Of a stretch of DNA of 64,000 nt, positions 2,396 through 59,146 are shown piece by piece. Below the pieces are notes generated by a model, which was not told where the DNA came from, ran no database searches, and worked only from the letters and a program-made list of their open reading frames with translations. Both the position numbers and the translations under genes were made by a program. Positions within the stretch are counted from its first letter, which is position 1. Each line of letters begins with the position of its first letter. The DNA is from Candidatus Omnitrophota bacterium. Its GTDB lineage: Bacteria > Omnitrophota > Omnitrophia > Omnitrophales > Aquincolibacteriaceae. Location: NCBI GenBank assembly GCA_043732705.1, contig JAYTHE010000026.1:12136-76135 (forward strand), given 5' to 3'.

Positions 2396-2645
2396 AAAAG
2401 TCCATTTATTAGCGCGAAAGCAGTTTCATAAGGTGTCTGGAGTCCAGCCCGTCATCGCGAGGAGCCCCGTAGGGCGACGTGGCGATCTGACGCTTTTTGT
2501 CATTCCCGCGAAGGCGGGAATCCAGACTGGATCCCCGATCAAGTCGGGGATGACACGGCGTGTCAGATTGCTTCGCTTTGCTCGCAATGACGTGATAATT
2601 AATAAGGACTCTTTGAGCAGCCCTTACCATTTCGGGAGAATATTT

Positions 2646-23162: not shown

Positions 23163-23190
23163 TGTCATTCTCGCGCAGGCGGGAATCCAG
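23163..23190. repeat. Single unit of the palindromic hairpin repeat family (TGTCATTCTCGCGCAGGCGGGAATCCAG)
   Basis: Read directly. Lies 14 nt upstream of ATG 23204, at the boundary of the AT-rich segment. Confidence 0.8.
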
Positions 23191-23203: not shown

Positions 23204-24607
23204 ATGAATTTGTACGCGTTAAGTGTGACTTGCTTTGGAATCACATCTCTTTTGATAGGACTTTTGGTTTGGATTAAGCTTGAGTCAAAGGTCGGATTTT
23301 ATTATTTTTTATTTTCGGCTTTTGCAGGGTTGTGGGGAATGTTTGAAGGACAGCAGTTTTCTAACAATTTTGATTACTCGACATCCGTTTTCTTTGCTAA
23401 GTGCTCAAATGTTTCGGCGATTTTTATCGGACCATTCTGGTATCACTTCGCCTTGGCTTTTGAACGAAAAGAATATTCTTTATCTCAGAAAGCGACACTT
23501 TTTATTTTTTACTTGGCTGCGATTTTTATTTGTTCGTTTTCTTCATCACGTTTATTTGTTGCAGGTGTTCACGAAATAGTTGGAATTAAGTACTACACGA
23601 AGCCTGGTCCTATATGGCATATTTTCACTGTTTTGTTTTTTGCATCTATTCCATTTGGTTTCAAAGAACTGTTCCGACATTTAAGTAAATTAGCGGGAAA
23701 AGAGCGGGGACAATGTTGGTGGTTAATTTGTACAACGGGCGTTGGTTTCTTGGGCGGCGCTTTAACTTTTCCACCTGCTTATGGGATTCCATTACCTCAA
23801 TATGGTTTGTTGATCATGCCGCTTTACCCTTTGTTTATGGCTATCTCGATGATGAAATATGGATTGCTTACCGAAGAGAATTTAATTTTAGCGGCACACA
23901 AAGATAAGCTTGCTGCGCTGGGAGTTTTAACCGCAAGCATGAACCATGAAATCCGCAGCCCTTTATTTTTAATGCGAGGCATGATTGAAATCGAAGGCAA
24001 AGGCTCTCCATTAGGGATTAAGCTATTGAATCAAATCAATCGCGTAACAGATATCGTTGCTCGTTTAACACATTTTGCAAAAAAGGGTGTGGAAGAAACT
24101 GCACAAATTGAGCCTCTTAACTTGAATGAAGTTTTAGAAGATATTCGTCCTTTATTTCAGCATCAGCTCAATTATCAGCATATCGAATACAATCAAGAGG
24201 TTCCCAAAGACTTACCCAAAGTGATGGCCGATAGGCGCTATCTCGAAGAAATTTTATTTAATCTTATTTTGAATGCCTGCCAAGCTCTCCAGAATACGTC
24301 GCAACCAACAATTGAATTGTCAGCGCGTATTCTTGAAGACCAACGACTATCGACTAGCGACCATAGACTCGCTTCTCGGTCCTCCGGCCTTGGGTCTACG
24401 ATCGTTGTCACGATCGTAGACAATGGCCCTGGCTTTACAGACAAGCAACGCAAAAATGTTTTTAAGCCCTTTTACACCACTAAAGAAGAGGGAACGGGCC
24501 TTGGTCTTTATATCACCAAACAACTTGTTGAAAAATGCGGTGGGAAAATTGAAATTAGATCTAGTGCCGCTAATGGGACACAATTTGTTGTAAAGCTGTT
24601 GCTTTAG
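23204..24607 (+). CDS. Sensor histidine kinase (7TM N-terminal sensor - HisKA - HATPase_c), paralog
   Basis: 7TM N-terminus. H-box LGVLTASMNHEIRSPL. G boxes DNGPGF ... GTGLGLYI. Lower-GC DNA than its neighbours. Confidence 0.8.
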   Translation: MNLYALSVTCFGITSLLIGLLVWIKLESKVGFYYFLFSAFAGLWGMFEGQQFSNNFDYSTSVFFAKCSNVSAIFIGPFWYHFALAFERKEYSLSQKATLFIFYLAAIFICSFSSSRLFVAGVHEIVGIKYYTKPGPIWHIFTVLFFASIPFGFKELFRHLSKLAGKERGQCWWLICTTGVGFLGGALTFPPAYGIPLPQYGLLIMPLYPLFMAISMMKYGLLTEENLILAAHKDKLAALGVLTASMNHEIRSPLFLMRGMIEIEGKGSPLGIKLLNQINRVTDIVARLTHFAKKGVEETAQIEPLNLNEVLEDIRPLFQHQLNYQHIEYNQEVPKDLPKVMADRRYLEEILFNLILNACQALQNTSQPTIELSARILEDQRLSTSDHRLASRSSGLGSTIVVTIVDNGPGFTDKQRKNVFKPFYTTKEEGTGLGLYITKQLVEKCGGKIEIRSSAANGTQFVVKLLL

Positions 24608-28791: not shown

Positions 28792-28859
28792 GACAAAAGA
28801 CTACAGGCTAAAGGTCGACGCACAATGACAAATTTTATTTGTCATTCGGAGAGGGCGGC

Positions 28860-28928
28860 TGTCATTCCCGCGAAGGCGGGAATCCAGTTTTTAATCTGAC
28901 TAGATTCCCGCCTTCGCGGGAATGACAG
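28860..28928. repeat. Inverted pair of palindromic hairpin units (MITE/REP-like)
   Basis: TGTCATTCCCGCGAAGGCGGGAATCCAG at 28860-28887 and the reverse unit CTAGATTCCCGCCTTCGCGGGAATGACAG at 28900-28928, separated by a 12-nt spacer. Confidence 0.85.
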
Positions 28929-28949
28929 AGTAGCAATTCTCATTAAAGC

Positions 28950-29267
28950 TTGGTTTACTTGAAAGAATATTTTGTTTATATTTTAGCAAGCAAGAGAAAT
29001 GGAACTCTTTATATTGGAGTTACCAATGATCTTGTGCGTAGGGTATATGAACACAAGCAGGGGTTGGTTGAGGGTTTTACGAAAGAATATGGAGTTGACC
29101 GGCTGGTCTATTTTGAACAAACGAATTCCGTTGAAGCAGCGATTTTACGTGAGAAGCAAGTTAAGAAATGGAATCGTCAGTGGAAATTAAGATTGATAGA
29201 AAATCAAAATCCAGAATGGGAAGATTTGTACAACAAGTTGACTGGATTCCCGCCTTCGCGGGAATGA
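28950..29267 (+). CDS. GIY-YIG nuclease family protein (COG2827-type small URI-domain endonuclease)
   Basis: YFVYILASKRNGTLYIGVTNDLVRRVYEHK ... KKW matches the GIY-YIG core. Start is TTG 28950. The last codons and the stop (..TGFPPSRE*) lie inside a repeat unit. Confidence 0.8.
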   Translation: MVYLKEYFVYILASKRNGTLYIGVTNDLVRRVYEHKQGLVEGFTKEYGVDRLVYFEQTNSVEAAILREKQVKKWNRQWKLRLIENQNPEWEDLYNKLTGFPPSRE

Positions 29268-29270
29268 CAG
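29242..29270. repeat. Single reverse-orientation hairpin repeat unit overlapping the GIY-YIG stop codon
   Basis: CTGGATTCCCGCCTTCGCGGGAATGACAG. The stop TGA falls at 29265-29267 inside it. Confidence 0.85.
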
Positions 29271-29342
29271 TAAAAACAGAGGTTTAATAATCGTGGATTT
29301 AACTGTCTTTAGTCCACAGTCTTCAGTCTTTGGTCTGCTATT

Positions 29343-29888
29343 ATGAAATTAATAGCAACTGCAATTCCCGATGTCATTTTAATTGAACCACAAGTTTTCG
29401 GCGACGAACGCGGATTTTTTATGGAAACTTTCCGCGGAGAATGGCTGACAAAACTAGGAATTAAGCACGGCTTTGTTCAGGATAATCATAGTATGTCGGT
29501 GAAAGGTGTTTTGCGCGGGCTGCATTTTCAAAAGCCGCCTTACGAACAAGCTAAATTAGTGCGCGTGATTAAAGGTGAAGCGCTTGATGTGGCGGTTGAT
29601 TTACGGCACGGATCGCCGACATTCGGAAAAGTTGCAGCTGAAATTTTATCCGAGAAAAACCGCCGCATGATGTATGTTCCGAAAGGCTTTGCGCATGGTT
29701 ATTGCGCGATATCGGAGACTTGCGAATTTCTTTATAAGGTCTCGGATTTTTATGCGCCGGGCTCCGAAGGCGGAATTATTTGGAATGACCCCGGGCTTAA
29801 TATTCAATGGCCTAAGCTCGACACGCCGTATATTCTTTCTGACAAAGATAAGAAGTTTCCAACCTTGAAAGAGTGGGTGAAAACCTAA
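29343..29888 (+). CDS. rfbC: dTDP-4-dehydrorhamnose 3,5-epimerase
   Basis: Near-collinear match to RmlC: IPDVILIEPQVFGDERGFFMETF ... VQDNHSMS ... VLRGLHFQ ... KLVRV ... DVAVDLR ... SPTFG ... VPKGFAHGY ... EFLYK ... IIWND. Confidence 0.93.
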   Translation: MKLIATAIPDVILIEPQVFGDERGFFMETFRGEWLTKLGIKHGFVQDNHSMSVKGVLRGLHFQKPPYEQAKLVRVIKGEALDVAVDLRHGSPTFGKVAAEILSEKNRRMMYVPKGFAHGYCAISETCEFLYKVSDFYAPGSEGGIIWNDPGLNIQWPKLDTPYILSDKDKKFPTLKEWVKT

Positions 29889-29911
29889 TCACGGACGTGG
29901 TCCGAGATCTT

Positions 29912-29979
29912 TGTCATTCCCGCGAAGGCGGGGATCCAGGTCTAACGATTACTAGATTCCCGCCTTCGCGGGAATGACA
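29912..29979. repeat. Inverted pair of palindromic hairpin units
   Basis: TGTCATTCCCGCGAAGGCGGGGATCCAG at 29912-29939 and CTAGATTCCCGCCTTCGCGGGAATGACA at 29952-29979. Confidence 0.85.
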
Positions 29980-29991
29980 TTAAAAAGGAAA

Positions 29992-31230
29992 TCATCTCTT
30001 TTTTAAGATGACGAGGGTTTCAATATGCTTGGTACGCGGAAACATATCAAAGGCCTGAACAGATTCCACCTTATAAGCCCGCTCGGTGAGTATCCTTAAA
30101 TCGCGCCCTAAAGCCCCCATATGACACGATATATATAGTATCGAATCAGGGCCCTTCCCTGAAGAAAGCGCCTTAGAAACGATGGGATCAAGGCCTGTGC
30201 GGGGAGGGTCAAGCAGGGCAAGAACGGGGCCATGGTGCTCTTCTTCCAAAATATCTTCGATGCAGTTTTCCACTTCTTCAGGGGCGATTTCAGCTGCAAG
30301 CCCCGCGTTATTCAAATTCATTTGCAAGGCGTCAATCGCTTGCGGATGACTTTCAACACACAAGGTTTGAGATTTGCTTGGATGCACGAGCATTGTAAAA
30401 GTACCCACGCCCGCGTAAAGATCCCAAAAATGTTCCGGTTTTAAACTTTCATACTGCGCATGAATTTTTTCTGCGATTTTTAAAGTCATTTCAAGATTAT
30501 TTTGAAAAAAGCAGCGCGAATGTGTTCGCAGGCGGATATTACCAACCGGAATATTAAAAAAAGTATCTTCAGCGCTTGTGGTAACTTTGCCTGCGGCTCC
30601 CACACGCACTGTGATTCTATTTGCTTTTGCAGTGTCATCCTCGCGCAGGCGGGGATCCATGTGCGGGTCGTTGGTCTGACGCGCAGTAGTCATCCCTGCG
30701 GAAGCAGGGATCTTCTGCCTGTTATCTCGAGTCTCTGGTCTCAGGTCTGCCAGAAATGAGTTAATCTCATTTTTAGCAAGTAGGCATGATTTGATTGCGA
30801 CTTTCGACTCATTGTTCTCATCCACAAAACCCCAGCCGTTATTTGCGTGATGTAAAGTGATGTGATTGCGATAGCTGTAAGGGTTGGAATTCGCGACAAT
30901 CGGCAGAAAAAGTTCATCGGGAAGCTGCAGCTGCTTTTGTAAAGATTCACGGATTTGAATTTCTTTCCATTTCACTTCTTCCGCGTAGCTCATGTGCTGA
31001 TACTGACAGCCGCCGCAGGAACCATAATAGGGGCAGGGAGGCGTCTCCCGCGCGTTAGAAGGATTCTCAATTTTGATGGCCCGTGCTTCTATAAAATTCT
31101 TTTTATCCTGAAGAATTTTAATTTCAACCGTTTCGCCCGGCAAAGCATTTTCAACAAAGCAAACTTTGCCTTCAAATCTGCCAATACCTTTTCCGCCGTA
31201 ACCTATTTTTTCGATTTTGATTTGTGTCAT
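29992..31230 (-). CDS. rlmD: 23S rRNA (uracil-C5)-methyltransferase RlmD/RumA family (TRAM + [4Fe-4S] + SAM-MTase), carrying an in-frame repeat insertion
   Basis: TRAM N-terminus (IGYGGKGIGRFEGKVCFVENALPGETVEIKI). Cys cluster CPYYGSCGGCQYQH. MTase motifs DLYAGVGTF and nucleophile ISCHMGALGRD. The segment IPASAGMTTARQTNDPHMDPRLREDDTAK is translation of the repeat family. Confidence 0.85.
   Translation of the reverse strand: MTQIKIEKIGYGGKGIGRFEGKVCFVENALPGETVEIKILQDKKNFIEARAIKIENPSNARETPPCPYYGSCGGCQYQHMSYAEEVKWKEIQIRESLQKQLQLPDELFLPIVANSNPYSYRNHITLHHANNGWGFVDENNESKVAIKSCLLAKNEINSFLADLRPETRDNRQKIPASAGMTTARQTNDPHMDPRLREDDTAKANRITVRVGAAGKVTTSAEDTFFNIPVGNIRLRTHSRCFFQNNLEMTLKIAEKIHAQYESLKPEHFWDLYAGVGTFTMLVHPSKSQTLCVESHPQAIDALQMNLNNAGLAAEIAPEEVENCIEDILEEEHHGPVLALLDPPRTGLDPIVSKALSSGKGPDSILYISCHMGALGRDLRILTERAYKVESVQAFDMFPRTKHIETLVILKKR
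30633..30717. repeat. Two direct hairpin repeat units inserted in-frame inside the rlmD-like CDS
   Basis: TGTCATCCTCGCGCAGGCGGGGATCCAT at 30633-30660 and TAGTCATCCCTGCGGAAGCAGGGATCTTCTG at 30687-30717. The minus-strand reading frame continues uninterrupted. Confidence 0.8.
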
Positions 31231-31256: not shown

Positions 31257-31325
31257 TGTCATCCCCGCGAAGGCGGGGATCCAGTCTTGAGTATTGCTAG
31301 ATTCCCGCCTGCGCGGGAATGACAG
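31257..31325. repeat. Inverted pair of palindromic hairpin units
   Basis: TGTCATCCCCGCGAAGGCGGGGATCCAG at 31257-31284 and CTAGATTCCCGCCTGCGCGGGAATGACAG at 31297-31325, between the two minus-strand genes. Confidence 0.85.
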
Positions 31326-33125: not shown

Positions 33126-33299
33126 ATGACGCATCCTGAAAAAATAAACACAGATAGTTGGATCGAAATCAAATTGATTGTTGAGCCGGAGGAATATCGA
33201 TTCCTTCAAAAGCAAGCTCAGCGCAAAGACATGATGGTTTCAGACCTAATTCGGCAAATTGTTCTGCGCTACATCGGTAATGAACGGGGGAGTTTATGA
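33126..33299 (+). CDS. Small (57 aa) ribbon-helix-helix-like protein, translationally coupled to the giant gene
   Basis: Absent from the ORF table (below 60 aa). Reads MTHPEKINTDSWIEIKLIVEPEEYRFLQKQAQRKDMMVSDLIRQIVLRYIGNERGSL. The beta-alpha-alpha pattern is CopG/RHH-like. Its TGA overlaps the giant gene's ATG (ATGA at 33296-33299). No strong SD. Confidence 0.4.
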   Translation: MTHPEKINTDSWIEIKLIVEPEEYRFLQKQAQRKDMMVSDLIRQIVLRYIGNERGSL

Positions 33300-36200
33300 G
33301 GTTAAAAAAAACAGTCAAGAAAGTGACCGCGCTTTTTTTGATAGTTACTTTTTCTTGGACAAATTTAATTGGAGCAAATAGCTGGGCGGCAGTCGAGCCG
33401 ATTCAAATGGTTAATGGGCAAGCCACAGCTGTTACCGATCCTTTTGCCACGAATACAAGTACTACTCAGATGGGAACGGTTCCCGTTGATTTTTTAGCGC
33501 AACAACCTGTGGTGACAACCGCTGCCGCAGTCTCCTTGGTTTCAATTGCTCCTACAGCTGCATTAAAATCTACCAACGTATCAAGTTTGTTGGGGAACCC
33601 TAAACCTTATATTCTTTCTAGTTCAACTTCCGCGACAAATCTGAGCTATGTAAACAATGCATTCAATTTTGGTTATAGTGTTCCAAATACTAACGACAAA
33701 TCAGGATTTTCTGTTTCATTTGATAATACAAGTACGGCCTTGATAGAAACGCAAAGCCTAACAAAAATGACCTTGGGTTTGAAGGGCACTGCTTCGACAA
33801 TTCAACTCGAAATCGTGGACTCATCCGGAATGCACGATAAGATTTTACTCACAGGTATTTCAAACACAGTCGAGCAGTTTTGGAAGATTCCAACGGCCTA
33901 CTTTTCTGCTTCAGTGAATAAAGCGAAAATTACTCAAATTAATTTTATTGTTGATCAATCGAATACTACAACCACAGCCCGATCGGGAACTTTGAATGTT
34001 CGGTTGAACGGATTGGATGTCGCTTCGCCAACTGCGCCTCTTGTGCAATCTGCGCCGCCCGCATTTTCAAATGTGAATAATATTACCTTGTCAGGAGCCA
34101 AAGAAGCGAACACATCACTTTTGATTAATGGTGTTGAAGTTATGCCGCGTAATAACTCAACAGCCTGGTCTTATCAGGTGAGCTTGCCCATAGAAGGTAA
34201 ATATATATTCAGTCTGATTGTCAAAAATTCGCTTGGAAAAATCAGTGCGGCATCTACGGTTGCGATAACGCGTGATACTGTTTTACCAACCGGAACAATC
34301 ATAATCGATTCAGGGGCTCTTTATTCCACTGACTTAAATGTGGCGTTGAAGCTTTCGGCGGTAGACGCCGGCAGCGCGGTCAAAAAAATGAGTTTTTCAG
34401 CGGACGGAGTGAATTGGAGTGCTCAAGAAACTTATGTGACTGCAAAAACTCTGACGCTTTCCTCAGGCGACGGTAATAAAACGGTGTATGTGAAATTTTA
34501 TGACGGAGCGGGGAATGCTAGCGCCGTATATTCCAAATCAATCATTGTTGATACTTTACCGCCTTCCGGAACAATTAAAGTGAATGATGGTGTGGCGATG
34601 ATTAATCAACGGGTAGCAATGTTGAATCTTTTAGCTGTAGACGTTGGATCCGGTGTCAGCAAAATGAGTTTTTCAACTAACGGGACTTCTTGGACAACCG
34701 CAGAAGTCTATGGGACAACTAAAGATTGGATATTTTCAGCGGGTGATGGGAATAAAATAGTTTATGTAAAGTTTTTGGATAAGTCGGGTAAATGGTCAAC
34801 GCCGATATCAGCAGCTGTTTTGATGGATACAATCAAACCGACAGGATCAATTAATATTAATTCCGGAGCGGCTTATGTTAATTTGCCTGAGATTGCGCTT
34901 AATCTTTCTGCTGCCGATCTTGGGGGAGCAGGCATCGGCAGCATGAGTTTCTCGTCTGACAATGTGAATTGGACAGTGCCGGAAGCTTACACGACTACCA
35001 AATCCTTTGTGCTTTCTCCCGGCGATGGGAATAAAACAATTTATGTAAAATATTTTGATAAAGCGGGGAATGTGAGTGTCGCTTATTCAAAATCCATTCT
35101 ATTGGATACGATAGCACCAACGGGTACGATGCGTATTAACGGAGGCGAGTCTTTTGTTAGTCAGACAGCCGTAACTCTTAATTTAACCGCAGCTGATTCC
35201 GGTACGGGGCTCGATAAGGTAAGTTTTTCGAATGATGGTGTGAATTGGAGCGTGGCCGAAACATTTGCTGCCGAGAAAAATTGGGTGCTTGCGATTGGCG
35301 AAGATCTTAAAACTGTTTTTGTTAAGTTTCTTGATAAGGCCGGTAATTGGTCAAGTGTAATTTCTAATAGCATTTTTCTGGATGTCACCGCGCCCACGGG
35401 GGCAATCAATATTAACTCCGGCACTGCTTACACAAACTCAAAAAATATCACATTAAATTTATTAGCAAATGATTCTGGCAGTGGTATCGATAAGATGAGT
35501 TTCTCAGTAGATGGAATTAATTGGAGCGCGCTTGAAAATTTTACGGCTTCCAAAGCATGGATGCTTTCTGACAATGATGGGAATAAAACGATTTATGTAA
35601 AATATTTTGATAAAGCGGGGAATGGGAGTGTCGCTTACTCAAAGTCCATTATCCTGGACACTATCGCACCGATTATTGATCTTTTGAATGCGCCGACTCA
35701 TGCAAATAGCGCAAGTTACATGACTCAGTATCGTGTGGATGGCGTATTAAAAGACAAAGCTTTTACGCTTAGCTCCGGAATGAATGCGATTTCAATTCGG
35801 GAAATAGACTTTGCGGGAAATGAAACAATTCGCACATGGAATGTGGAATATTCTACGACGGAAGACATCAATCTTGCCGGCGGTGGGTTGCAACATTTTG
35901 AAAATGGAAAGATTCAGTATCAGGTTAATGCGGACGGGAGCCGGGTTAATTATAATTCGGATGGATCGATTGCGAATTTTTCATGGGGCATAGCGAATGG
36001 AAATACAAAGGTCACATTTTTAAATGACGCACAAAACTCTTTAGAAATACGCGACGCATCCAATCAATTAATCAAGATCATCTCAAATGTAAAACCCCCA
36101 GAGCCTAATTTGAGCAACGCTCTTAAAATTAATTTGCAAGATGGAATCGAGACTTACTATTCAGAAGGTGTCTTGAAGGAAATCCGGACTGCGGAAAATG

Positions 36201-39200
36201 TGAAGCTTTTTAATTTAACGATGTCCGCGCCTGTCTCCGCAAGTGAAGTGCCCGAAATACGGGATGCCGTGATTGCTTATCCTAATGGTTCGATTGACAT
36301 TATGTGGAATAAATTTTTGATCCGCAGAATCACAGTTGATGGATCAATTACAGATATGCTGCCTGACGGAACGATAGGCAGGGAAATTAGCGAGGAAATT
36401 GAGCAAACTTATCTCGGAATTTATGATGCCTCCGGAAATGTTGCAGGGACAAAAATTCTTTCGAATCAAGGCGACGAAGTCACTTACGACGAAAAGGGAA
36501 TTTTAAAAGAAGTCAAAGGGCATGATGGTAAGCATTTTGTTTATGATCGCACACAAAGTGGGAACCAGTATCTTTTAAGCCTAAACGGAGCACTTTCCAG
36601 TTCTGCGTCGGACCAAACGCTTAAATCAGGGAAATATGCGCAAGACGGAAGCGTTCTTGAGCTTGATTTTCAAAATGGCAGCAAAGTAACCTTTGAAAAC
36701 GGACAAATTAAACAGGCTGTAAATGCACAAGGTGAGACGGTTAATTACAGTCAACTGCTAAGCAATGGCCTCGCACAGGGGCTAATGGTGAATCGGGGCT
36801 TAGCCAATTTTACTTATGACATAACCGGTTTTCTCAGCCAGATTCAAACGGAACAAGGAATCATTACCCGCGAACAAGTGGACTCTAATCACGATGGTCT
36901 GCTCAATGACCAAGATACGGTCGATTTGCTGTTGGAGCTGACAGGCGGGAATAAACTCACGGATTTTCAATTGGATGTGAATGGGAAAATTTTAAATGGG
37001 ATTATCGAGACGCGCGAAGGTATAAAGCAGAAAATTGAAAATGGAATTCTTAGAGAGCTAATTACCGCAGATGGCAAAAAATATCTGATACATAACGGAC
37101 AGGCAGAACTTGATACTTGGGCATTTCAGGATGGCATAGTTGTGAAGTATGGCGGTACAAGTATTCAGCAGATTTTGTTTCCAAATGGGAAGCGTTTTGA
37201 GCAAGTGCAGCTTAACGCACAAAAAGAAATTGCAAGCTATGTTGAAATTGATGGTAACACACAAAGTTTTTTTGAAAATGGAATTTTAAAAAAGCGTGTT
37301 TTTGATGGGGTTCAGATTTTTTACTCAATAGATGGACGAGCTCAAAAAATAATCCGTGCGAATGGTGCCGAGGAATTTGTTGAGCATCAATTTGATGTGA
37401 ATGGAAATTGGGTTGGATTAAATCTGGTTAGTGCGGATGGCATGCTTGTTTACGATGAGGATGGAAAGCTTACCGCTATTTTGACATCAGGCTTAACCGC
37501 GCAGGTCGAAGATAGCACGATTAAGAGTCTTTCAACGCGCTTTGGAAATATACAAGATCCCGTTTTTAATGCTAAGGGCAATCTGAACGGAGAGGTTGTT
37601 TTATCAGACGAACGAAAACTTCTCATTCAGGATGGCAAACTTTTACGTATAACTTTTAAAAATGGAACACAGATTGATTGTGCCAATGGTCGCATCTCAC
37701 GCGTTGAAAATTCAGAGGGAATTTATCAGCTTACCTACTTGGAAAACTCTAGTGCCCTTGAGGATGTTAAAGTTAATTATGTCTTAAGCCCCGGTACTTC
37801 TGCCACCGGACTTACGGTTGAAATGAGCCTCGCAAGCTATTTACTAGCTAATCCTTATTCTGAATTTTCAAAAATCATAAGTCCTCGCCCTGCGAAAGAT
37901 ATTTTTGCGGGTGGAATACAAACACAGTTAGGCGCTCATGGTTTACTTGATTTATCAAAGATAGTTGAAGACCAAGATCGCGGAGATACTTACTCCGTAG
38001 GAGGGATTTTTGATCCAAACTTATCAGATATTTATAATTTAGATGGCAACTATAACGGCGGATATCTTAGCAAAAGTCTCATGGGGATGATTGCTTCTGA
38101 TTTACTAGATTTAGATGGAGATGGTGATTTAGACCGGATCTTTGTTGATTCTTCGAAAAATTTTTGGTGGGTTCAAAAATTTGAAAATGGAAGTTTCCTT
38201 TCTGCTGAGAAGTGGATCGGGATAGAGGCGATTGGAAATACAGTCAATAATTTTGCTTTAAGATTCTCTAATGACTCAAACACCGCGGTTATGGGTAACT
38301 TGCTGGATATGAACGGGGATGGCAGGCCTGATCGCGTAGTAGCTTCTGTAAATGAAAATCCCGTTTGGTATGTTCAATTAAATAATGGTGTCGGTTTTGA
38401 TCCGGCTAAAATTTGGAGTAATGTGCAGCCGCTTATCCAAATCAATGCCGGCGATCCTATCAACAAGTACGCGCTACAAGTTCGCGAGAATTCTTCGCAA
38501 AATCAGTTTTTTATCTCTGATTTAATTGACATGGATGGTGACAATTTGCCGGATCGCATTATTCAATCGCAAGCAAGCCCTGTTCCTGGCGCGGATCCAT
38601 TCAATCATTGGTTTTTTCAAAAAAATAACGGACATGGGTTTGATGAAGCTGTCATTTGGAAAGGGATTAACAATTCCTTTGATCTGGATCCTAAGATCGG
38701 CAGCGGCATGAACGTTTTTTTTAATAGTACAACTTGGTTTGATGAAGATCTGCGCCTTGCATTTACAAGCGCCCATGCAAGTTTTAATAACGCTTGGACT
38801 AGCAAAAATATTAATGCTTACCGTGCGACTTTCCTTCTAACTAAGTCAATGGTTAAAGGGCCTCCGGGAATCTTGAATTGGCTTAATAGCCTGGAACCGC
38901 AGCTTTTCGGAACGACATGTGTAAAGAACATATGCACTCAATATATAAAGGAAAACGTATACCAAGCGGCCAACGCACTTTTTTCAAACATTGATTCTGT
39001 CCAAAGAAATATTCTAACCACGAGCGTTCTAAAGGACATGAATGGCGATGGCCGGCCCGATCGAATTTTACTTAAACAGAAGAATCCGAGTAATGCTAAT
39101 TCGGGCTATAGCTGGTACATCCAATGGAATAATGGCAGCGGCTTTGATCCCGCTGTTCTTTTTGATGATCAAGTTCGCAGTGTGTCGGGCAGCATTGCGC

Positions 39201-42200
39201 AGCAGGGAGCATCCACCGCCATTCAATCTTTTTTTGCCTGGGATCAGAAAGAAAAGACACGCAGCTATCTGAGTTATTTAGCGGATGTCACGGGTGACGG
39301 CCTTCCGGACCGCATCACTTTAGATTCTTGGAGCATGGTTCCGGCAAATCGGTGGTGGGTTGAAGTGAATGATGGAAAAACTTTTAAGGATGCTGTTGCT
39401 TGGGATGGTGTGGAAGGTAGTGCTTTAGCCCAAATCGCGCCTTCCCAAGGTATTGAAGGAGCCGCGACGCAGAGTTCGAATGTAAGCGTGATATCAAAAC
39501 TAATTGATATAAATGGCGACAAAATTCCCGACCATATTTTTTTTAAGGAAGGAACAAATCAATGGGTTGTGCAGTATGGAACAGGGCACGGCTTTTTACC
39601 TTCTCAGCCGATGGAAATCCAGGGTATTCGGAACAAAGAAGCATTTAATGCGGCTAAATACGAATATGCGCACATAAGTTTGCGCGCTCAATATCCTGAT
39701 CTTGTTCAAAATGGCAAATTGGTAATTAGGCTTATCGATGAAAATAATAAAGAAGTTCAAAAATGGGAAATTACGGGCGCAAACAATAGCTGGAAAGATC
39801 AATATTTGGCGATTGACCGTGCAAAAACAGGCGGCCGCTATCTGGATGCGCGTTGGGAGCTTAATGCAGGGGTAGTTGCAGCCGATCCGCAAATTTTAGT
39901 CGATGATGTAAGTTTAATTTCGTTGCATCCCAATGCAAGTACGGAATGGCTAGATTATTTGCTTACGGAAGGGAATGTGATTAATGCCGTGCAAGCGGCG
40001 GCGAATGATCCGGCGATTCATGATTTAGCTCAAGTCGTTAATGCGCAAGACACATTTGATTGGAAAAAACTGCTCGCGGTCGAAACCAAAATTAATTTCA
40101 ATGCAACCGGCGCGGTTAGCGGCGCCGAAAAATTAAATGGTGAAACCTCACAAGTTCAAACTTCGGGCAACACAACCACGATTACTGTGGCGCATACCGA
40201 TGGAACTGTTACTCAAACCACAGTTCCCACCGCAGGTAGTTCAAATAGCTACACAAAAAGCATTAACTATGACAATGGAACACCGGATAATTTAACGGAT
40301 GACTACACTGAGATAGCTATGATTGCTTATGATCGTATGCGAAGTGTGACTCGTGACCACAGTCATAAACAACCGCTTCAATATTCTTATGAATTTGATG
40401 AATTAAATCGAGAGATTACAGTTATCTATGATCCTGATTCTAATGAAACTGAAAAATCACGGGCGGTTTCCGGATTAAATGGGGACGAAAATAAAATTGT
40501 CGCGCAAATCGCGGCCAACGGGGTTGAAACTCGCTACACCTACAATGCTTCCGCTGAGCTCACGCGCACCGAAATTACTTATAAGGGGCGCGTACGCGAA
40601 ACTTTTGAGCAAAGTATTACTGCGGACGGCCTTCACGCGCTCAAAACCGAATCGGGCTCAATCGAGTTTTATAATGAGCAAGGACAAATTGTCGGCCATC
40701 GCACAACCGATGGCTATTATTACAAGCATGAATTTGCTCCGGCTAAAACCATAGAGACTTCTATAACCACTAAAACAGTTGTGTTGTGCGATTCCGCAAA
40801 GCAAGATTGTTCAGCAATTCCTGTCGCGCAACGCACGCTTACAGTTCAAATTCCGACAGTTACCTTGACAGACTGTTTAATTAATTGCGAAACCATTCAT
40901 CAGGTTACACTCGATCATCTTACCGACTTAGATGGCAATATTGCTTTTTATACAGGCTCGCAGTTAAGCAGTCTTGAATTATCAACGGGCCTTAAGATGA
41001 CTTTCGACGGAATGATTACCGAAAATAGCAAAGATGTTAATGGTAATGATATTGAAATTACCAAGCCCAAGAACGTGGTCATTTTTCATCAAGATGGAAC
41101 GATCACTGAGTTTAAGAATGGTCTGCCATACTCTGTCACTTCCGCAGCTGGCCACGTTATTTCTATTGAGCCCGACACAGAGACGACGACTACAGGTCGT
41201 GTTGTATTAAAAAATCCTTCCTCCTCCGCCGAGTTTCACTACGCTGAAGCGGTCAAGCTTTGGAATCAGAAAGTTTTGGCTAATTTTGATAAATATCAAT
41301 TGCCGGACAGCCAAGTTGTGCAGGTGGAATATGCAAAGACGGGCAACAAGATCGTTACGCAGCTTTTCGCGTCAGGTGGGCGGGAAATGTATGACGCTGC
41401 CGGGCATATTGACTTTGTGGTTTCCGAAGAAGGGGATCGCATTATTGATTATGACTATGATGCAGCCGGCAATCCTACCGCGATCCATTTAGAAGGCTCG
41501 CGCCGCAAACTTGATCAGACCATATTAGATCTTAAAATTGAAATAGCTTTAAAACAGTATCAGTCTTTACTTGATGTGGCAGAACGCGAGCAGATTTTAA
41601 ATGAAACAGTAGAAAGTCAGTACATTGTTCAACGCAATCAGTTAATCGCGTTACGCGCGCAAATTGAATCGCAGCGAAACCAACTAGCCTCGATTAAAGT
41701 TAAAGGCAAAGCCGGTAAAAATTCAATATCGGACGCGATGCAGCAAATTAATGTTGGTCTCGGGCAGGTGAATCAGGCTTTATACCAATTGCTCGAAAAT
41801 CGTACGCAAGCGCTCGCGAATTTACAAGGCCAGGTGAAAAATCTTAATACGCAGATTAATGACCAAACAACGCAGGCTTACACGGACATTTCAAATAAAG
41901 AAAGAGAAGTTCAAAATTCAATCCTGACGCAGGAAATTTCGCCGATCGTTTATCACTGGTACCGCACAATTCTTGGTCGCGATCCCTCTGAGTCGGAGTA
42001 TGAAGCTGCCAAGTCTTTGGCCAACTATAGCTCGGGGACATTTAACCTTACAAGTCTTAAGGCGCAGCTTCAAAATAGCCCTGAATATGTCCAACGCACA
42101 GCGGAAGTAGCCGCGATTAAAGCCGCAGTTAAGACGCAATTGCTTAATTATTTAGCGGCAGATGACGCCGGCAAGCAAGCCTTTGTCGCAGGTTTAGGAA

Positions 42201-45200
42201 TTAATTCTCAAAATAGAGTGTCTCTTGCTCGGGCTGAAGTGGATGCAATTTTTGTATGGATGGATAAGCAAAACTTGCACTTTGGTCAATCCGCTTTCAT
42301 TTCCTTAGAAGCGCTGCTTGACGATGCGGGCATTGCGCACAACCGCATTAATATGGCGCGGGATTTAATTTTAACTGACATTATTACCGGTACTCTTACT
42401 CCGATTGAAAAAGGTGATTTGCTTATTTCGATGTATGCGATGAATGCCTATGCCGCCCGGTTTGGTTTAAATTTATCGCCACTCAAACTAACTTACGACG
42501 CCCTCAAGTCTATTTTTGATACTTGGTGCGTTGAGCATGGTTCATGCGCGGGATTCCGTTTGGTTGCGCATATGGATGGTAATCATTACGTTGTAGTTAC
42601 AGGCATTACTACGCGGGTTGAAGATGGGAAGACTATCGAAGAAGTTCACTATACTGATCCGGGCGCGGGCAAGAACGGTGACGAAGCGGTTGTCGTATCC
42701 AAAGATGATTTTTTGAAGTATTGGATTAATCAATCCGCAAAGTTAGACAGCCCGGATGCATCTAACTTACAAAACTCAGCTATGGGTTATATCCTCTCGC
42801 CGCGCGCGCCTCCGGCTGCTAAAAAAAGTGAATTCCGTGTTTTAAATTTCACAGAGCAAATGCAGGTTCGCGGCTCCTTCTTCTTTCTCATTCCCATTAT
42901 CGTAGCTGCTATCGTTGTAGCTATTCATGCCATTGTTGGCGCAATTATCGCAGCGATCACGGCGATTATCGGCGCACTCGTAGCAAGTGTTAGCACAATC
43001 ATTACCGGTTTCACCACGTTCTTTGGTGGATTATTCGGAAATTTCTTAACAACATTCTCTGGATTTTTTACCGGAATATTTCACGGTTTGACTTCGCTCG
43101 GCGGACTTGTTTTTAATGCGATTACGTACGGTCCTAATGCGGTTCTTGGAGTGCTTGGCCTGAAAGCCGGAACCTTTCTCGGCAGCGTGGTTTTCTCAAG
43201 CTTGATAGGCGCTGAATTCTTGGGTGCAGGAAAGCTTTTAGAATTGACGGGTTTGTCCCCAAAATTCGCGCAAACGATTATTAACTTTGGAAAAATTATC
43301 ACGGGTGTCAGTCTTATCGCAACGGGCGCTGGAAGTGTTCTTGGATTCGGATTCATCAGCGCGGGAACAACGGATTTGCTCCATGCCTATACAAATCTTT
43401 CACCGCAGTTTATCAATGCTCTTTCCATTGGTGCGCAGGCATTAAGCGCGTTTGGAATTGGTGGAGTTATCGGCGGAACTATCCAAGGCGCAATGAATGC
43501 GCTTAAAGAAGCAACTCCATTTTTGACGAAAGAGCTTTCATCGCTGGGGTTGCTTAGTTTTGGGACGAGCAAAAGCCTCAGGCTCGCTGCCTTGCTTGAA
43601 ACCCCGATCAATTTATTTACGGGCGCACTTTTGGGAGGAGGGTTTTCAGCAGCTAATATTCTGAACTCCGTCAAAACGGCGCTTTTTAGTCAGCAAGCAC
43701 TTGCTAGTTTTATTTCGATCGGGGCGCAAGTGGGACTGAATGCATTACCGATTAACCCTCTTTTGGCCGGCTTAGGCGGGGTAGTTATTTCGGGGCTGAT
43801 TGATGGATTGGTTCCGGTCAAAAAAGTTCCGGGCTTGGAAATTGGCGCGCCTATTTTTGAAACAACTTATCAATTGAAAGGCGTGCTGGAAGGATTAAAA
43901 AATGCCGTTCAACGCGCCTTCAATACTGTTTTGGAGACTCTTAGAACAGAGTCAGTGCGGTTTGACGTATCAGTTGCGAAAAATGGACTTAAAGCAACTC
44001 TCTCCGACATTGTAGCAAGCGCGCTTGACCGCTCTTCAATTGAAGGTTTGATTGGAACTGTCGGTAACCTCTCGGATTATATTGAAGACAAATATAACAA
44101 TCACTCCACGATCGTTAATTATCACGGTTCGCCGGCTAAAGAAGTCACTTTGGATGTAAATGGTAAAACCGTCATTATGACATTCGATCAGGCGACACAT
44201 GAACTTTTGCGCGTTGATGGCAGCAATGGGCATATTTTAGAAGGCGATTTGCGGCTTGGGGCGAATGGAAATATATACGCTTTTAACGGTTCGGAATTAA
44301 CCTCTGGAGCCAATGGCGTCGTGCAACAGTTTACTTATGAAGACGGCAATCTTGTTTTTTCGCGCTATGTCGGTGATGGTAAAGGCGCGGATTGGTACCC
44401 TGAGCAAGGTAAGAAATTAACTCTTTATTCAGACGGACAATTGCGTGACGGCATTATTGAAGACTTGAGTTCGGGCGCAAAGACGGTTGTGCGCAACGGA
44501 AAAATTATTGAAGTTATCAATCCGCTTAAGCTTGAAATCGCACCGAATTCAATCGGCGGCGAGCAAGTTCCACTTTTTGAGCAGGCAGGGCTGCTTGGCG
44601 AAGATGGAAAATTCACAAATTATGAATATCGAATCAATTCCGCGGCGCTAAAAGGAATGCGGTCAGATGATTTAAGCAGCGCGGCGTTGACGGGCTTAAA
44701 AGAATCCATGAATGATCTTTCCAGTTGGCAGGGAACACCGGCAGGATTTGCGAAAACAGGTATTCAAAAAGTTCAAGCATGGGAGGAGAATTTTTATGCG
44801 GTGAACGGCAGTCCTCTGACAAATCGCGGTTCCTTGGGTGTTTTTCTTGCGGCAGGAGCCATTAAAGGCGTGTTCGATATTGGCAATTTTGGAACAGACA
44901 CGTACTTGGCGGTGGAATCATTAAAAGAAGCGATTCGAACCGGGGAATTCGAAACCGGCGCGAAGAATTATTTTGATAATTGGAAAAATTCGCTTCTCAC
45001 TAATCCTTTGATTTCTGTGGCTAACGTATTTGGAGTCAACACCCCCAATTTAAATCAAGCCGTGTCGTCTATGGGCAACGAAACCATGCGCGTCATGAAT
45101 GCCTTTGGCACCGCAGAAATGGTCAAGGTTTTATGGCCGTACAAAGGAATTTTCGCTACGGGGTTAGTATCTGCTCTGAAAGATGATTTTGGACAGCTCA

Positions 45201-45748
45201 TTAGGAGTGAAGGCGGGTATATTCGAATTGTTCGAGAAACTTTTGGGGAAAGAGTATCAAGATTGCTTGGAAATCCTACCAGCGGTAACTTAAATGAGAT
45301 CGAGGGATTATTACGAAATAAAGTCAATATGCAGGAGGTCTTATTTAAAGAATATAAGAGTGCAACAGATGTGACTGAGGCGGCTCAACGCGGCTTTTTA
45401 AATTTGGATGTTAATACAGCACGATCATTTAAAGGCGGACAGTATCAAGTTAGAGTTTTATCGGAAGATCTTGTAGTGTATCGAGCAGAAGGTGGATTGG
45501 CCAAAAAATATGGCGCATTTTTTGGCACTGAAAAACCTATTAATGCTTACGATGCGGATCGGCTCTATAATGTCGTTGTGCATGGCAATGATGTGCAAGA
45601 GGTTTCTACGTATATAATTAAAAAAGGCACAGTGGTCTACGAAGGTGGGGTAGAAGGTGGGGTAGGTGTTCAAATGTTTTTGAGAAATCCAAAAGAAAAA
45701 GATGTGGCTCTTTTAGCTACAGAAATCTTAGAAAGAAGTACTACATGA
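33296..45748 (+). CDS. Giant (4150 aa) secreted multidomain protein: Ig-like tandem repeats, YD/RHS-like repeats, FG-GAP-like Ca-binding repeats, coiled coil, DUF4214-like motif, C39-like peptidase motif, 330-aa glycine-zipper hydrophobic region, variable C-terminal domain (polymorphic-toxin/teneurin/Tc-toxin-like architecture)
   Basis: Single uninterrupted 12.4 kb ORF. Signal peptide MRLKKTVKKVTALFLIVTFSWTNLIGANSWA. Five ~93-aa repeats (DT-PTG-I-IN-G...GDGNKT-YVKF-DKAGN). YD-like segments (VYDEDGKLTAI, ETRYTYNASAELTRTEITYKG). Six FG-GAP-like repeats of the form L-D-[MLI]-[ND]-G-D-G-x-P-D-R (written xDxNGDGxPDR elsewhere). Heptad-rich region at aa ~2740-2880. VYHWYRTILGRDPSESEYEAA (DUF4214-like). 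CAGFRL ... NHYVVVTG (Cys...His). aa ~3192-3521 is hydrophobic and G/A/I-rich. Confidence 0.85.
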   Translation: MRLKKTVKKVTALFLIVTFSWTNLIGANSWAAVEPIQMVNGQATAVTDPFATNTSTTQMGTVPVDFLAQQPVVTTAAAVSLVSIAPTAALKSTNVSSLLGNPKPYILSSSTSATNLSYVNNAFNFGYSVPNTNDKSGFSVSFDNTSTALIETQSLTKMTLGLKGTASTIQLEIVDSSGMHDKILLTGISNTVEQFWKIPTAYFSASVNKAKITQINFIVDQSNTTTTARSGTLNVRLNGLDVASPTAPLVQSAPPAFSNVNNITLSGAKEANTSLLINGVEVMPRNNSTAWSYQVSLPIEGKYIFSLIVKNSLGKISAASTVAITRDTVLPTGTIIIDSGALYSTDLNVALKLSAVDAGSAVKKMSFSADGVNWSAQETYVTAKTLTLSSGDGNKTVYVKFYDGAGNASAVYSKSIIVDTLPPSGTIKVNDGVAMINQRVAMLNLLAVDVGSGVSKMSFSTNGTSWTTAEVYGTTKDWIFSAGDGNKIVYVKFLDKSGKWSTPISAAVLMDTIKPTGSININSGAAYVNLPEIALNLSAADLGGAGIGSMSFSSDNVNWTVPEAYTTTKSFVLSPGDGNKTIYVKYFDKAGNVSVAYSKSILLDTIAPTGTMRINGGESFVSQTAVTLNLTAADSGTGLDKVSFSNDGVNWSVAETFAAEKNWVLAIGEDLKTVFVKFLDKAGNWSSVISNSIFLDVTAPTGAININSGTAYTNSKNITLNLLANDSGSGIDKMSFSVDGINWSALENFTASKAWMLSDNDGNKTIYVKYFDKAGNGSVAYSKSIILDTIAPIIDLLNAPTHANSASYMTQYRVDGVLKDKAFTLSSGMNAISIREIDFAGNETIRTWNVEYSTTEDINLAGGGLQHFENGKIQYQVNADGSRVNYNSDGSIANFSWGIANGNTKVTFLNDAQNSLEIRDASNQLIKIISNVKPPEPNLSNALKINLQDGIETYYSEGVLKEIRTAENVKLFNLTMSAPVSASEVPEIRDAVIAYPNGSIDIMWNKFLIRRITVDGSITDMLPDGTIGREISEEIEQTYLGIYDASGNVAGTKILSNQGDEVTYDEKGILKEVKGHDGKHFVYDRTQSGNQYLLSLNGALSSSASDQTLKSGKYAQDGSVLELDFQNGSKVTFENGQIKQAVNAQGETVNYSQLLSNGLAQGLMVNRGLANFTYDITGFLSQIQTEQGIITREQVDSNHDGLLNDQDTVDLLLELTGGNKLTDFQLDVNGKILNGIIETREGIKQKIENGILRELITADGKKYLIHNGQAELDTWAFQDGIVVKYGGTSIQQILFPNGKRFEQVQLNAQKEIASYVEIDGNTQSFFENGILKKRVFDGVQIFYSIDGRAQKIIRANGAEEFVEHQFDVNGNWVGLNLVSADGMLVYDEDGKLTAILTSGLTAQVEDSTIKSLSTRFGNIQDPVFNAKGNLNGEVVLSDERKLLIQDGKLLRITFKNGTQIDCANGRISRVENSEGIYQLTYLENSSALEDVKVNYVLSPGTSATGLTVEMSLASYLLANPYSEFSKIISPRPAKDIFAGGIQTQLGAHGLLDLSKIVEDQDRGDTYSVGGIFDPNLSDIYNLDGNYNGGYLSKSLMGMIASDLLDLDGDGDLDRIFVDSSKNFWWVQKFENGSFLSAEKWIGIEAIGNTVNNFALRFSNDSNTAVMGNLLDMNGDGRPDRVVASVNENPVWYVQLNNGVGFDPAKIWSNVQPLIQINAGDPINKYALQVRENSSQNQFFISDLIDMDGDNLPDRIIQSQASPVPGADPFNHWFFQKNNGHGFDEAVIWKGINNSFDLDPKIGSGMNVFFNSTTWFDEDLRLAFTSAHASFNNAWTSKNINAYRATFLLTKSMVKGPPGILNWLNSLEPQLFGTTCVKNICTQYIKENVYQAANALFSNIDSVQRNILTTSVLKDMNGDGRPDRILLKQKNPSNANSGYSWYIQWNNGSGFDPAVLFDDQVRSVSGSIAQQGASTAIQSFFAWDQKEKTRSYLSYLADVTGDGLPDRITLDSWSMVPANRWWVEVNDGKTFKDAVAWDGVEGSALAQIAPSQGIEGAATQSSNVSVISKLIDINGDKIPDHIFFKEGTNQWVVQYGTGHGFLPSQPMEIQGIRNKEAFNAAKYEYAHISLRAQYPDLVQNGKLVIRLIDENNKEVQKWEITGANNSWKDQYLAIDRAKTGGRYLDARWELNAGVVAADPQILVDDVSLISLHPNASTEWLDYLLTEGNVINAVQAAANDPAIHDLAQVVNAQDTFDWKKLLAVETKINFNATGAVSGAEKLNGETSQVQTSGNTTTITVAHTDGTVTQTTVPTAGSSNSYTKSINYDNGTPDNLTDDYTEIAMIAYDRMRSVTRDHSHKQPLQYSYEFDELNREITVIYDPDSNETEKSRAVSGLNGDENKIVAQIAANGVETRYTYNASAELTRTEITYKGRVRETFEQSITADGLHALKTESGSIEFYNEQGQIVGHRTTDGYYYKHEFAPAKTIETSITTKTVVLCDSAKQDCSAIPVAQRTLTVQIPTVTLTDCLINCETIHQVTLDHLTDLDGNIAFYTGSQLSSLELSTGLKMTFDGMITENSKDVNGNDIEITKPKNVVIFHQDGTITEFKNGLPYSVTSAAGHVISIEPDTETTTTGRVVLKNPSSSAEFHYAEAVKLWNQKVLANFDKYQLPDSQVVQVEYAKTGNKIVTQLFASGGREMYDAAGHIDFVVSEEGDRIIDYDYDAAGNPTAIHLEGSRRKLDQTILDLKIEIALKQYQSLLDVAEREQILNETVESQYIVQRNQLIALRAQIESQRNQLASIKVKGKAGKNSISDAMQQINVGLGQVNQALYQLLENRTQALANLQGQVKNLNTQINDQTTQAYTDISNKEREVQNSILTQEISPIVYHWYRTILGRDPSESEYEAAKSLANYSSGTFNLTSLKAQLQNSPEYVQRTAEVAAIKAAVKTQLLNYLAADDAGKQAFVAGLGINSQNRVSLARAEVDAIFVWMDKQNLHFGQSAFISLEALLDDAGIAHNRINMARDLILTDIITGTLTPIEKGDLLISMYAMNAYAARFGLNLSPLKLTYDALKSIFDTWCVEHGSCAGFRLVAHMDGNHYVVVTGITTRVEDGKTIEEVHYTDPGAGKNGDEAVVVSKDDFLKYWINQSAKLDSPDASNLQNSAMGYILSPRAPPAAKKSEFRVLNFTEQMQVRGSFFFLIPIIVAAIVVAIHAIVGAIIAAITAIIGALVASVSTIITGFTTFFGGLFGNFLTTFSGFFTGIFHGLTSLGGLVFNAITYGPNAVLGVLGLKAGTFLGSVVFSSLIGAEFLGAGKLLELTGLSPKFAQTIINFGKIITGVSLIATGAGSVLGFGFISAGTTDLLHAYTNLSPQFINALSIGAQALSAFGIGGVIGGTIQGAMNALKEATPFLTKELSSLGLLSFGTSKSLRLAALLETPINLFTGALLGGGFSAANILNSVKTALFSQQALASFISIGAQVGLNALPINPLLAGLGGVVISGLIDGLVPVKKVPGLEIGAPIFETTYQLKGVLEGLKNAVQRAFNTVLETLRTESVRFDVSVAKNGLKATLSDIVASALDRSSIEGLIGTVGNLSDYIEDKYNNHSTIVNYHGSPAKEVTLDVNGKTVIMTFDQATHELLRVDGSNGHILEGDLRLGANGNIYAFNGSELTSGANGVVQQFTYEDGNLVFSRYVGDGKGADWYPEQGKKLTLYSDGQLRDGIIEDLSSGAKTVVRNGKIIEVINPLKLEIAPNSIGGEQVPLFEQAGLLGEDGKFTNYEYRINSAALKGMRSDDLSSAALTGLKESMNDLSSWQGTPAGFAKTGIQKVQAWEENFYAVNGSPLTNRGSLGVFLAAGAIKGVFDIGNFGTDTYLAVESLKEAIRTGEFETGAKNYFDNWKNSLLTNPLISVANVFGVNTPNLNQAVSSMGNETMRVMNAFGTAEMVKVLWPYKGIFATGLVSALKDDFGQLIRSEGGYIRIVRETFGERVSRLLGNPTSGNLNEIEGLLRNKVNMQEVLFKEYKSATDVTEAAQRGFLNLDVNTARSFKGGQYQVRVLSEDLVVYRAEGGLAKKYGAFFGTEKPINAYDADRLYNVVVHGNDVQEVSTYIIKKGTVVYEGGVEGGVGVQMFLRNPKEKDVALLATEILERSTT
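34270..35680 (+). repeat. Five tandem ~279-bp coding repeats (Ig-like modules) inside the giant gene; repeats 3 and 5 are near-identical at the DNA level over ~100 bp
   Basis: GATGGGAATAAAAC(A/G)ATTTATGTAAAATATTTTGATAAAGCGGGGAATG ... CGCTTA(T/C)TCAAA at about 35028 and about 35578. The protein-level periodicity is listed in the call. Confidence 0.8.
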
Positions 45749-46107: not shown

Positions 46108-46153
46108 AAGTGCCAGGTCTAAAAGGACAAAAAGTTGAAAAAGATATTAAGTT

Positions 46154-53555: not shown

Positions 53556-53620
53556 TGTCGTCCCCGCGAAGGCGGGGACCCAGTTATTATTTCTGGATTC
53601 CCGCTTACGCGGGAATGACA
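53556..53620. repeat. Inverted pair of palindromic hairpin units between glgB and glgX
   Basis: TGTCGTCCCCGCGAAGGCGGGGACCCAG at 53556-53583 and CTGGATTCCCGCTTACGCGGGAATGACA at 53593-53620. Confidence 0.85.
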
Positions 53621-59107: not shown

Positions 59108-59146
59108 GGGACCCAGGCTAGATTCCCGCCTGCGCGGGAATGACAG
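59108..59146. repeat. Degenerate hairpin repeat pair upstream of topA
   Basis: GGGACCCAGG remnant followed by CTAGATTCCCGCCTGCGCGGGAATGACAG at 59118-59146. Confidence 0.75.

Follow-up and report, generated by a model that had tools for sequence, protein, structure and literature searches.

The closest described counterpart of the locus reported here is the Ssn/NTS system of Neisseria. Chenal et al. (Nat Commun 2025; PMC11893778) defined the Neisseria Transformation Sequence (NTS), which contains dRS3, and found it spatially tied, across bacteria, to homologs of ssnA (NMV_0044/NMB0047, 94 aa, cd10448): 71% of these homologs had a degenerate version of the sequence, the Ssn-related motif (SRM), nearby and 42% had it on both sides, while an ssnA homolog was present in 81% of the genomes with more than 200 SRMs. 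Only 2% of the NTS lay inside genes. Purified SsnA bound NTS as single-stranded DNA (ssDNA) only, and one strand only, and cut it a few nucleotides upstream; it was inactive on double-stranded DNA (dsDNA) and RNA, and the Y6A, Y17A and E64A variants kept binding and lost cleavage (PMC11893778). Cleavage specific for ssDNA was shown for the homologs of N. meningitidis, N. elongata, N. wadsworthii and Wolbachia, and in N. meningitidis SsnA reduced transformation by NTS-bearing DNA (PMC11893778). The authors likened the NTS-ssnA-NTS arrangement to an insertion sequence and to repetitive extragenic palindromic (REP) elements with their REP-associated tyrosine transposases (RAYT), mobility not having been demonstrated (PMC11893778). 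Our literature searches returned no follow-up paper on Ssn and nothing relevant on GIY-YIG nucleases together with REP elements or with COG2827. Here we describe a window of 64,000 nucleotides (the whole stretch of DNA analysed) from a Candidatus Omnitrophota bacterium (contig JAYTHE010000026.1), in which a small GIY-YIG gene, hereafter ssn, stands among copies of a short hairpin repeat.

Judged from its sequence, the product of 28959–29267 is very probably an Ssn-family single-domain GIY-YIG endonuclease, an Omnitrophota-type copy of the Ssn/NTS system. As part of the same reading, the 28-nt hairpin units around ssn and elsewhere in the window are, in all likelihood, the recognition sites of Ssn (NTS or SRM). 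Such a nuclease-hairpin partnership is already known, having been published in 2025. The preliminary description of this DNA, which was made from the letters alone, had put the GIY-YIG protein forward as a candidate cognate nuclease of the hairpin family, and it thereby recovered a real enzyme-repeat pairing that had been published only in that year.

The window protein was 62% identical to the N. gonorrhoeae ortholog of SsnA over 86 of 94 aa (BLASTP E 4e-40, tblastn E 4e-29), which places it, against that ortholog, inside the published rule for SsnA homology (E < 1e-10 over >75% of the protein; >=60% identity in the strict version). The positions of Y6, Y17 and E64 in the 94-aa gonococcal ortholog fit the published N. 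meningitidis SsnA numbering, and Y7, Y18 and E65 of the window protein align to these residues, whose mutation abolished cleavage. Y7, Y18, R28, H32 and E65 were invariant among 30 homologs, the catalytic Tyr, Arg and Glu being all present. The PF01541 domain spans residues 7–80 of the 105-aa open reading frame (ORF), with no other domain detected. In NCBIfam the sole match was TIGR01453 (group I intron endonuclease), at 20.8 bits against a cut-off of 56. Among solved structures none was nearer than distant UPF0213 proteins, matches to WD40 structures being compositional noise. Those UPF0213/YhbQ-type proteins (PDB 1ZG2 and 1YWL) are also small single-domain GIY-YIG proteins, of the kind that had been called COG2827-type in the preliminary description, but the similarity is distant (E 2.4e-6 to 1ZG2 and 0.11 to 1YWL) compared with the 62% identity to SsnA, and we know of no pairing of such proteins with NTS. 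PADLOC gave only a 14-bit match on the window and no defence-system assignment.

A search with the protein core recovered ~8000 homologs at 70–82% identity, mostly of 94–97 aa, and annotated homologs came from Omnitrophota, Zixibacteria, Ignavibacteria, phyla of the candidate phyla radiation (CPR) and Alphaproteobacteria, with Candidatus Omnitrophota supplying the best annotated ones. About one quarter of the best 120 homologs carried N- or C-terminal extensions translated from the NTS repeat (MSFPRKRES.., MDARLRGHD.., VIPAKAGI, ..GFPPARE and ..GFPPSRE); because these extensions are translations of the repeat, the repeat must abut both ends of the gene in many genomes. The same holds for the 3' end of the window gene: residues 95–102 (TGFPPSRE) are translated from the downstream unit, which encodes the last seven codons (GFPPSRE), and the TGA stop is that of the unit's terminal ...GGAATGACA. 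The stop codon had indeed been placed inside a repeat before, with five codons covered instead of the seven full codons found here, and the GIY-YIG gene itself stands with a different start: the N-termini of homologs (such as MKEYY... and MKSYY...) point to TTG 28959 and 102 aa, not to 105 aa from 28950. As to the gonococcal ortholog, its source record NZ_CP119142.1 (locus L083, 1878719–1884976) is listed as a plasmid by PLSDB although it is an N. gonorrhoeae chromosome of 2.17 Mb; the gene (2989–3270 of L083) has no in-frame ATG there, its frame beginning with ATT ATA TGC ACG GTT TAT, and has NTS units on both sides.

The association between gene and repeat was then followed in 80 loci from one-genome-per-species contigs, drawn from at least 584 confirmed matches and covering more than 15 phyla. 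In nearly all of them a TGTCAT-stem-loop-stem-ATCCAG unit lies 4–140 nt 5' of the start codon, with its reverse complement at or just after the stop, so that the layout unit(+)-gene-unit(-) recurs throughout the sample. The strict published pattern was present in canonical orientation within 150 nt of the gene in 46 of the 80 loci, and on both sides in 22. These canonical strict matches within 150 nt of ssn amounted to 72, where a density of 0.047 per kb, as in the distal flanks, would predict ~1.1, which is the genome-crossing co-occurrence that the preliminary description had proposed to look for. It had also asked whether other copies end inside a repeat: six do, with the stop codon at the same position, out of the 36 other loci that have a downstream unit. 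A test free of any motif gave the same picture: the 150 nt before the gene aligned (score >=16) to the reverse-complemented 150 nt behind it in 65 of 77 loci, and in 1 of 77 after shuffling, and the arms were more alike within a locus (mean score 26.1) than between loci (16.4).

The 28-nt unit TGTCATTCCCGCGAAGGCGGGAATCCAG occurs in ~15 copies in the window, where ~0.1 would be expected by chance; its 20-nt core, at up to 3 mismatches, was found 12 times (0.02 expected), and the published SRM pattern matched 13 times (0.12 in 100 Markov simulations). Under the published NTS search rule, which tolerates at most 1 mismatch, seven window units qualify, among them all three that flank ssn (28860, 28900 and 29242). 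Compared with the NTS consensus CGTCATTCCCGCGMAVGCGGGAATCYRG, the window unit agrees at 27 of 28 positions and differs in the first base only. The bases reported as critical are GTC on the 5' side of the palindrome and the C that directly follows it; all listed window units keep them except one, the degenerate unit 53556–53583 (TGTCGT..GACCCAG). Across 69 distinct units the columns G2, T3, C4 and C25 were invariant, columns that the search pattern itself fixes. The same 69 units argue for a conserved hairpin: 99.6% of the stem cells are paired, with 45 compensatory (double-change) cells against 6.5 in shuffles. As ssDNA, a single unit folds into a stem of 8 bp capped by a 4-nt loop, at -10.5 to -11.5 kcal/mol (z -4 to -6), and doublets can also form a single long hairpin, at -31 to -36 kcal/mol (z -11 to -12). 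The core ATTCCC-N8-GGGAAT is that of dRS3, and here, as in dRS3 and the Neisseria intergenic mosaic elements, units flank short variable segments; the definition of dRS3, however, is that of a symmetric 20-mer targeted by a phage recombinase, whereas the units here add the asymmetric NTS flanks and sit in a distant phylum. The three repeat sites known beforehand, around ssn and rfbC, lie as they had been described; that inventory was incomplete, and the window holds further units (Table 1). Scans of the window with Rfam (gathering thresholds) and ARAGORN gave no match to any RNA family, group I introns included, and no tRNA.

Table 1. Hairpin units, ssn and neighbouring genes in the 64-kb window
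Feature	Position	Strand	Remarks
NTS/SRM unit	28860..28887	+	left doublet arm upstream of ssn; 1 mismatch to published NTS pattern; -10.5 kcal/mol, z -4.2
NTS/SRM unit	28900..28927	-	right doublet arm, 12 nt from left arm; doublet fold -36.3 kcal/mol, z -11.8
ssn gene, probable single-domain GIY-YIG nuclease of the Ssn family	28959..29267	+	102 aa, TTG start; PF01541 E 1e-16
NTS/SRM unit	29242..29269	-	overlaps ssn 3' end, supplies TGA stop 29265–29267
rfbC/rmlC	29343..29888	+	TIGR01221 E 2.5e-75, PF00908 E 1.5e-72; context gene, outside the element
NTS doublet	29912..29939, 29952..29979	+, -	separates convergent rfbC and rlmD
rlmD, 23S rRNA methyltransferase gene	29992..31230	-	holds two NTS units in frame
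Two degenerate NTS units, tandem, in frame inside rlmD	30633..30660, 30688..30715	+	encode IPASAGMT...MDPRLREDD, inter-domain linker
NTS doublet	31257..31324 (units 31257, 31297)		between rlmD and fadL-like gene
NTS doublet	2498..2555 (units 2498, 2527)		second unit is stem variant CCCCGA/TCGGGG
Single NTS unit	23163..23190	+	between two histidine-kinase genes
NTS doublet	53556..53620 (53556–53583, 53593–53620)	+, -	first unit degenerate
Single NTS unit	59118..59145	-	upstream of topA

The locus shares with Neisseria SsnA/NTS a single-domain GIY-YIG protein of ~94–100 aa with the same Tyr, Tyr and Glu, the oriented 28-nt hairpin, the NTS-gene-NTS layout and further units around neighbouring genes. 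It differs in its host, which is uncultured, Omnitrophota-like and of no known natural competence, in the stop codon and eight C-terminal residues taken from the repeat, in the upstream doublet and in the two in-frame units of a housekeeping gene. Several points weigh against our assignment of the locus to this system. The window protein begins at a TTG and ends in eight residues that the repeat encodes, the units around its gene stand in the order + - gene - and not in the simple order + gene -, and the protein was compared with the gonococcal ortholog, not with N. meningitidis SsnA itself. The only in vivo role tested is the restriction of transforming ssDNA in naturally competent Neisseria (PMC11893778), and this role may not apply to an Omnitrophota-like host. 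The activity of the window protein is, moreover, presumed by analogy with the tested homologs.

If the window protein behaves as those homologs do, it would bind the hairpin only as ssDNA, and only the strand reading YGTCATTCCCGCG-loop-CGCGGGAATCCAG, and with Mg2+ would nick the bound strand a few nucleotides 5' of the motif, leaving duplex DNA and RNA unaffected. The predicted cuts fall just outside the unit-ssn-unit cassette, on the top strand left of 28860 and on the bottom strand right of 28927 and of 29269; they lie on opposite strands because the arms of the cassette are inverted. In the cell, Ssn would act where NTS-bearing DNA turns single-stranded, that is on incoming DNA or on replication or recombination intermediates, a role in this organism that we infer by analogy.

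The gene order around the cassette offers a direct comparison. The order histidine kinase-response regulator-rfbC-rlmD-fadL-like-giant protein is kept in two independent relatives, the Omnitrophota metagenome-assembled genome (MAG) GCA_035436425.1 (also found in ENA and JGI contigs) and GCA_964562525.1, with protein identities of 90–92% for the response regulator, 77–78% for RfbC and 66–73% for RlmD. Their 13-kb blocks contain zero ssn homologs and zero NTS/SRM units; the same block thus holds nine NTS units where ssn is present and none where it is absent. In the first relative the gap between the response regulator and rfbC measures 6 nt (551 nt here), and rfbC and rlmD overlap by 4 nt, where 103 nt separate them here, the doublet at 29912–29979 being absent there. 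Because these relatives keep the gene order without ssn and NTS, rfbC is, by synteny, an ancestral resident gene, and cassette and repeats are a lineage-specific difference, which on these sequences may be either a gain here or a loss in the relatives. The insertion in the rlmD linker is also polymorphic: among RlmD orthologs, P0122, P0124, P0130 and P0131 have NTS-coded peptides and P0125–P0129 and P0132–P0136 do not.

These comparisons bear on a further reading, compatible with the Ssn/NTS assignment and extending it, in which the unit-ssn-unit cassette is an autonomous, nuclease-initiated mobile element and the doublets without a gene are its non-autonomous derivatives, comparable to REPINs and RAYT. 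We consider it possible, although somewhat unlikely. The idea had been raised by the authors of the Ssn paper (PMC11893778), and the relatives of the same gene order without ssn and NTS, with their shorter gap before rfbC, are consistent with it, as is the presence or absence of units in the rlmD linker among orthologs. One MAG holds a pair of cassettes whose homology begins exactly at the outer end of the + unit and extends through the - unit; their units are identical, their genes ~80% identical and their left flanks unrelated. The contig of one of these cassettes (L016) stops at the - unit, so that the comparison takes in the cassettes and their left flanks. Five of the loci carry ssn paralogs within 10 kb (three copies in L019 and L041, two in L039, L049 and L079). 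The ssn core has 36% GC and the window 44%, and across phyla Ssn stays at 60–80% identity while RlmD drops to ~38%. Of the doublets, finally, 17 are convergent like the arms of the cassette, whereas 3 are divergent and 4 tandem.

Against mobility, no target-site duplication was seen at any of the 9 window sites in a check made by eye and without an exact filled and empty nucleotide pair to compare. To our knowledge, GIY-YIG nucleases have no strand-transfer or joining chemistry. The predicted cuts lie on opposite strands and so would excise neither strand as a unit. Here the comparison with IS200/IS605 is instructive: those elements also have imperfect end hairpins that are recognised as ssDNA and cut a short distance away, but both of their ends are cut on one strand and rejoined through a covalent tyrosine intermediate, unlike the inverted arms of the cassette, for which we know of no joining step. 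Within a doublet the two units frequently differ in their stem variant. Among 50,697 phage records close homologs of Ssn are practically missing, and of the plasmid records 35 have a match, most of these being very large replicons. The relatives may, besides, have lost ssn and NTS instead of this lineage having gained them. A stronger form, which we hold to be unlikely, makes the cassette an element that propagates itself by a new kind of mechanism: a hydrolytic GIY-YIG ssDNA nickase, and not a transposase, would seed the copying of cassette and doublets. If true, it would explain a near-identical hairpin and a 60–80% identical protein in more than 15 bacterial phyla. This Omnitrophota-type example makes a conserved block with and without Ssn/NTS directly comparable, and the contrast between blocks, the homology bounded by the cassette and the in-frame rlmD units bear on the mobility of NTS and on its role outside naturally competent Neisseria.

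One explanation that competes with the Ssn/NTS assignment, and a very improbable one, takes the hairpins to be mainly transcription signals, acting as terminators, mRNA stabilisers or promoter donors and unconnected in function with the nuclease. The segment 28864–28883 with the T-run that follows is terminator-like and lies downstream of the response-regulator gene, and the outer ATGACA of the unit 29242–29269, which resembles a -35 box, forms with AATAAT 16 nt further on (29264–29291) a 10/12 match to a sigma-70-like consensus facing rfbC. Most units, however, have no T-run, terminator-like matches in the region are not above shuffled sequence (6 vs 3.5 +/- 2.3), and the strict pairing with ssn and the asymmetric flanks GTC and C would be left unexplained. 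A transcriptional side effect would be compatible with the Ssn/NTS assignment.

We give hardly any credit to the view that the Y1 transposase-like gene of the window serves these hairpins as ordinary REP elements and that the GIY-YIG gene lies near them by coincidence. REP, BIME and REPIN elements with their RAYT do resemble this system in their short oriented hairpins, often in convergent doublets scattered in intergenic DNA, in the single small enzyme gene between inverted copies and in recognition as a single strand, and the gene at 46154–46741 matches Pfam Y1_Tnp and NF047646 REP_Tyr_transpos (78.8 bits, cut-off 80). That gene nevertheless has 31-nt inverted repeats of its own (46088–46118 and 46749–46779, 97% complementary) that are unrelated to NTS, its nearest NTS unit is >6 kb away, and NTS follows ssn across more than 15 phyla; in addition, the enzyme here is a hydrolytic GIY-YIG nuclease, not HUH/Y1, and the hairpin sequence differs. 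The RAYT-like gene was consequently rejected as the cognate enzyme of the hairpins on account of its own separate repeats.

It is equally hard to credit that Ssn acts as a classical homing endonuclease, whose gene is copied into an empty site after the enzyme has cut the duplex there. The GIY-YIG fold, the key residues shared with I-TevI and I-BmoI, the weak TIGR01453 match and the patchy distribution would agree with homing; those enzymes, though, have two domains including a C-terminal one for DNA binding, reside in introns or as free-standing phage genes, cut duplex intron-less alleles and have no hairpin repeats, while Ssn consists of a catalytic domain only (102 aa), its tested homologs do not cut dsDNA (PMC11893778), the window has no group I intron and the same phage records have essentially no close homologs. 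Double-strand homing is unlikely: the enzyme recognises the repeat-bearing DNA itself, and not the empty allele, and dsDNA is spared by the tested homologs.

Finally, rfbC, correctly named in the preliminary description and a true, full-length rmlC, had been taken there for cargo between two hairpin elements or for a rearrangement joint, a proposal that its bracketing by units and the absence of rfbA, rfbB and rfbD partners among the tested window genes might favour but that is contradicted by synteny and has almost no chance of being right, as the response regulator-rfbC-rlmD adjacency is kept in both relatives without ssn or NTS, the GC of rfbC equals the window mean of 44% and the 80 other loci show no linkage of rfbC with ssn.

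Some minor features of the locus were also recorded. Upstream of the doublet at 28860, at a distance of 13 nt, the sequence at 28824–28846 reads AATGACAAAT-TTT-ATTTGTCATT, a perfect 10-nt palindrome in which the outer ends of NTS units meet back to back with the stems missing; either a remnant or an end-to-end junction may explain it. Tandem runs of the heptamer GACNNNN were found three times in the window (29301–29335 and 30727–30747 on the - strand, 24338–24372 on the + strand) against 0.14 expected; they adjoin NTS units and sit inside two genes, and runs of this kind are also present between genes in the NTS-free relatives (L085 5760–5810, L087 7150–8250 and L089 ~2140–2175). In two relatives the gap between response regulator and rfbC holds another small gene (L087 7833–8195 and L089 3475–3834; 119–120 aa, 23S_rRNA_IVP/bAvd family), and this occupation by a different gene suggests that the gap is an insertion hot spot.

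A contig of the same organism in Logan (SRR23617244, contig L081) begins and ends within NTS units (window positions 29245 and 31285), and relatives with an NTS-bearing rlmD were found on contigs of 1–4 kb only. Because this short-read contig breaks inside units at both of its ends, NTS repeats fragment assemblies. Searches with rfbC and the response regulator recovered nothing beyond short-read contigs of this organism, which are broken at NTS units. Beside the fadL-like gene, the window also encodes a giant protein (33296–45748, an ORF of 4150 aa); its orthologs in the relatives have 5392–7079 aa, with faint Big_13, Laminin_G and RHS-type matches.

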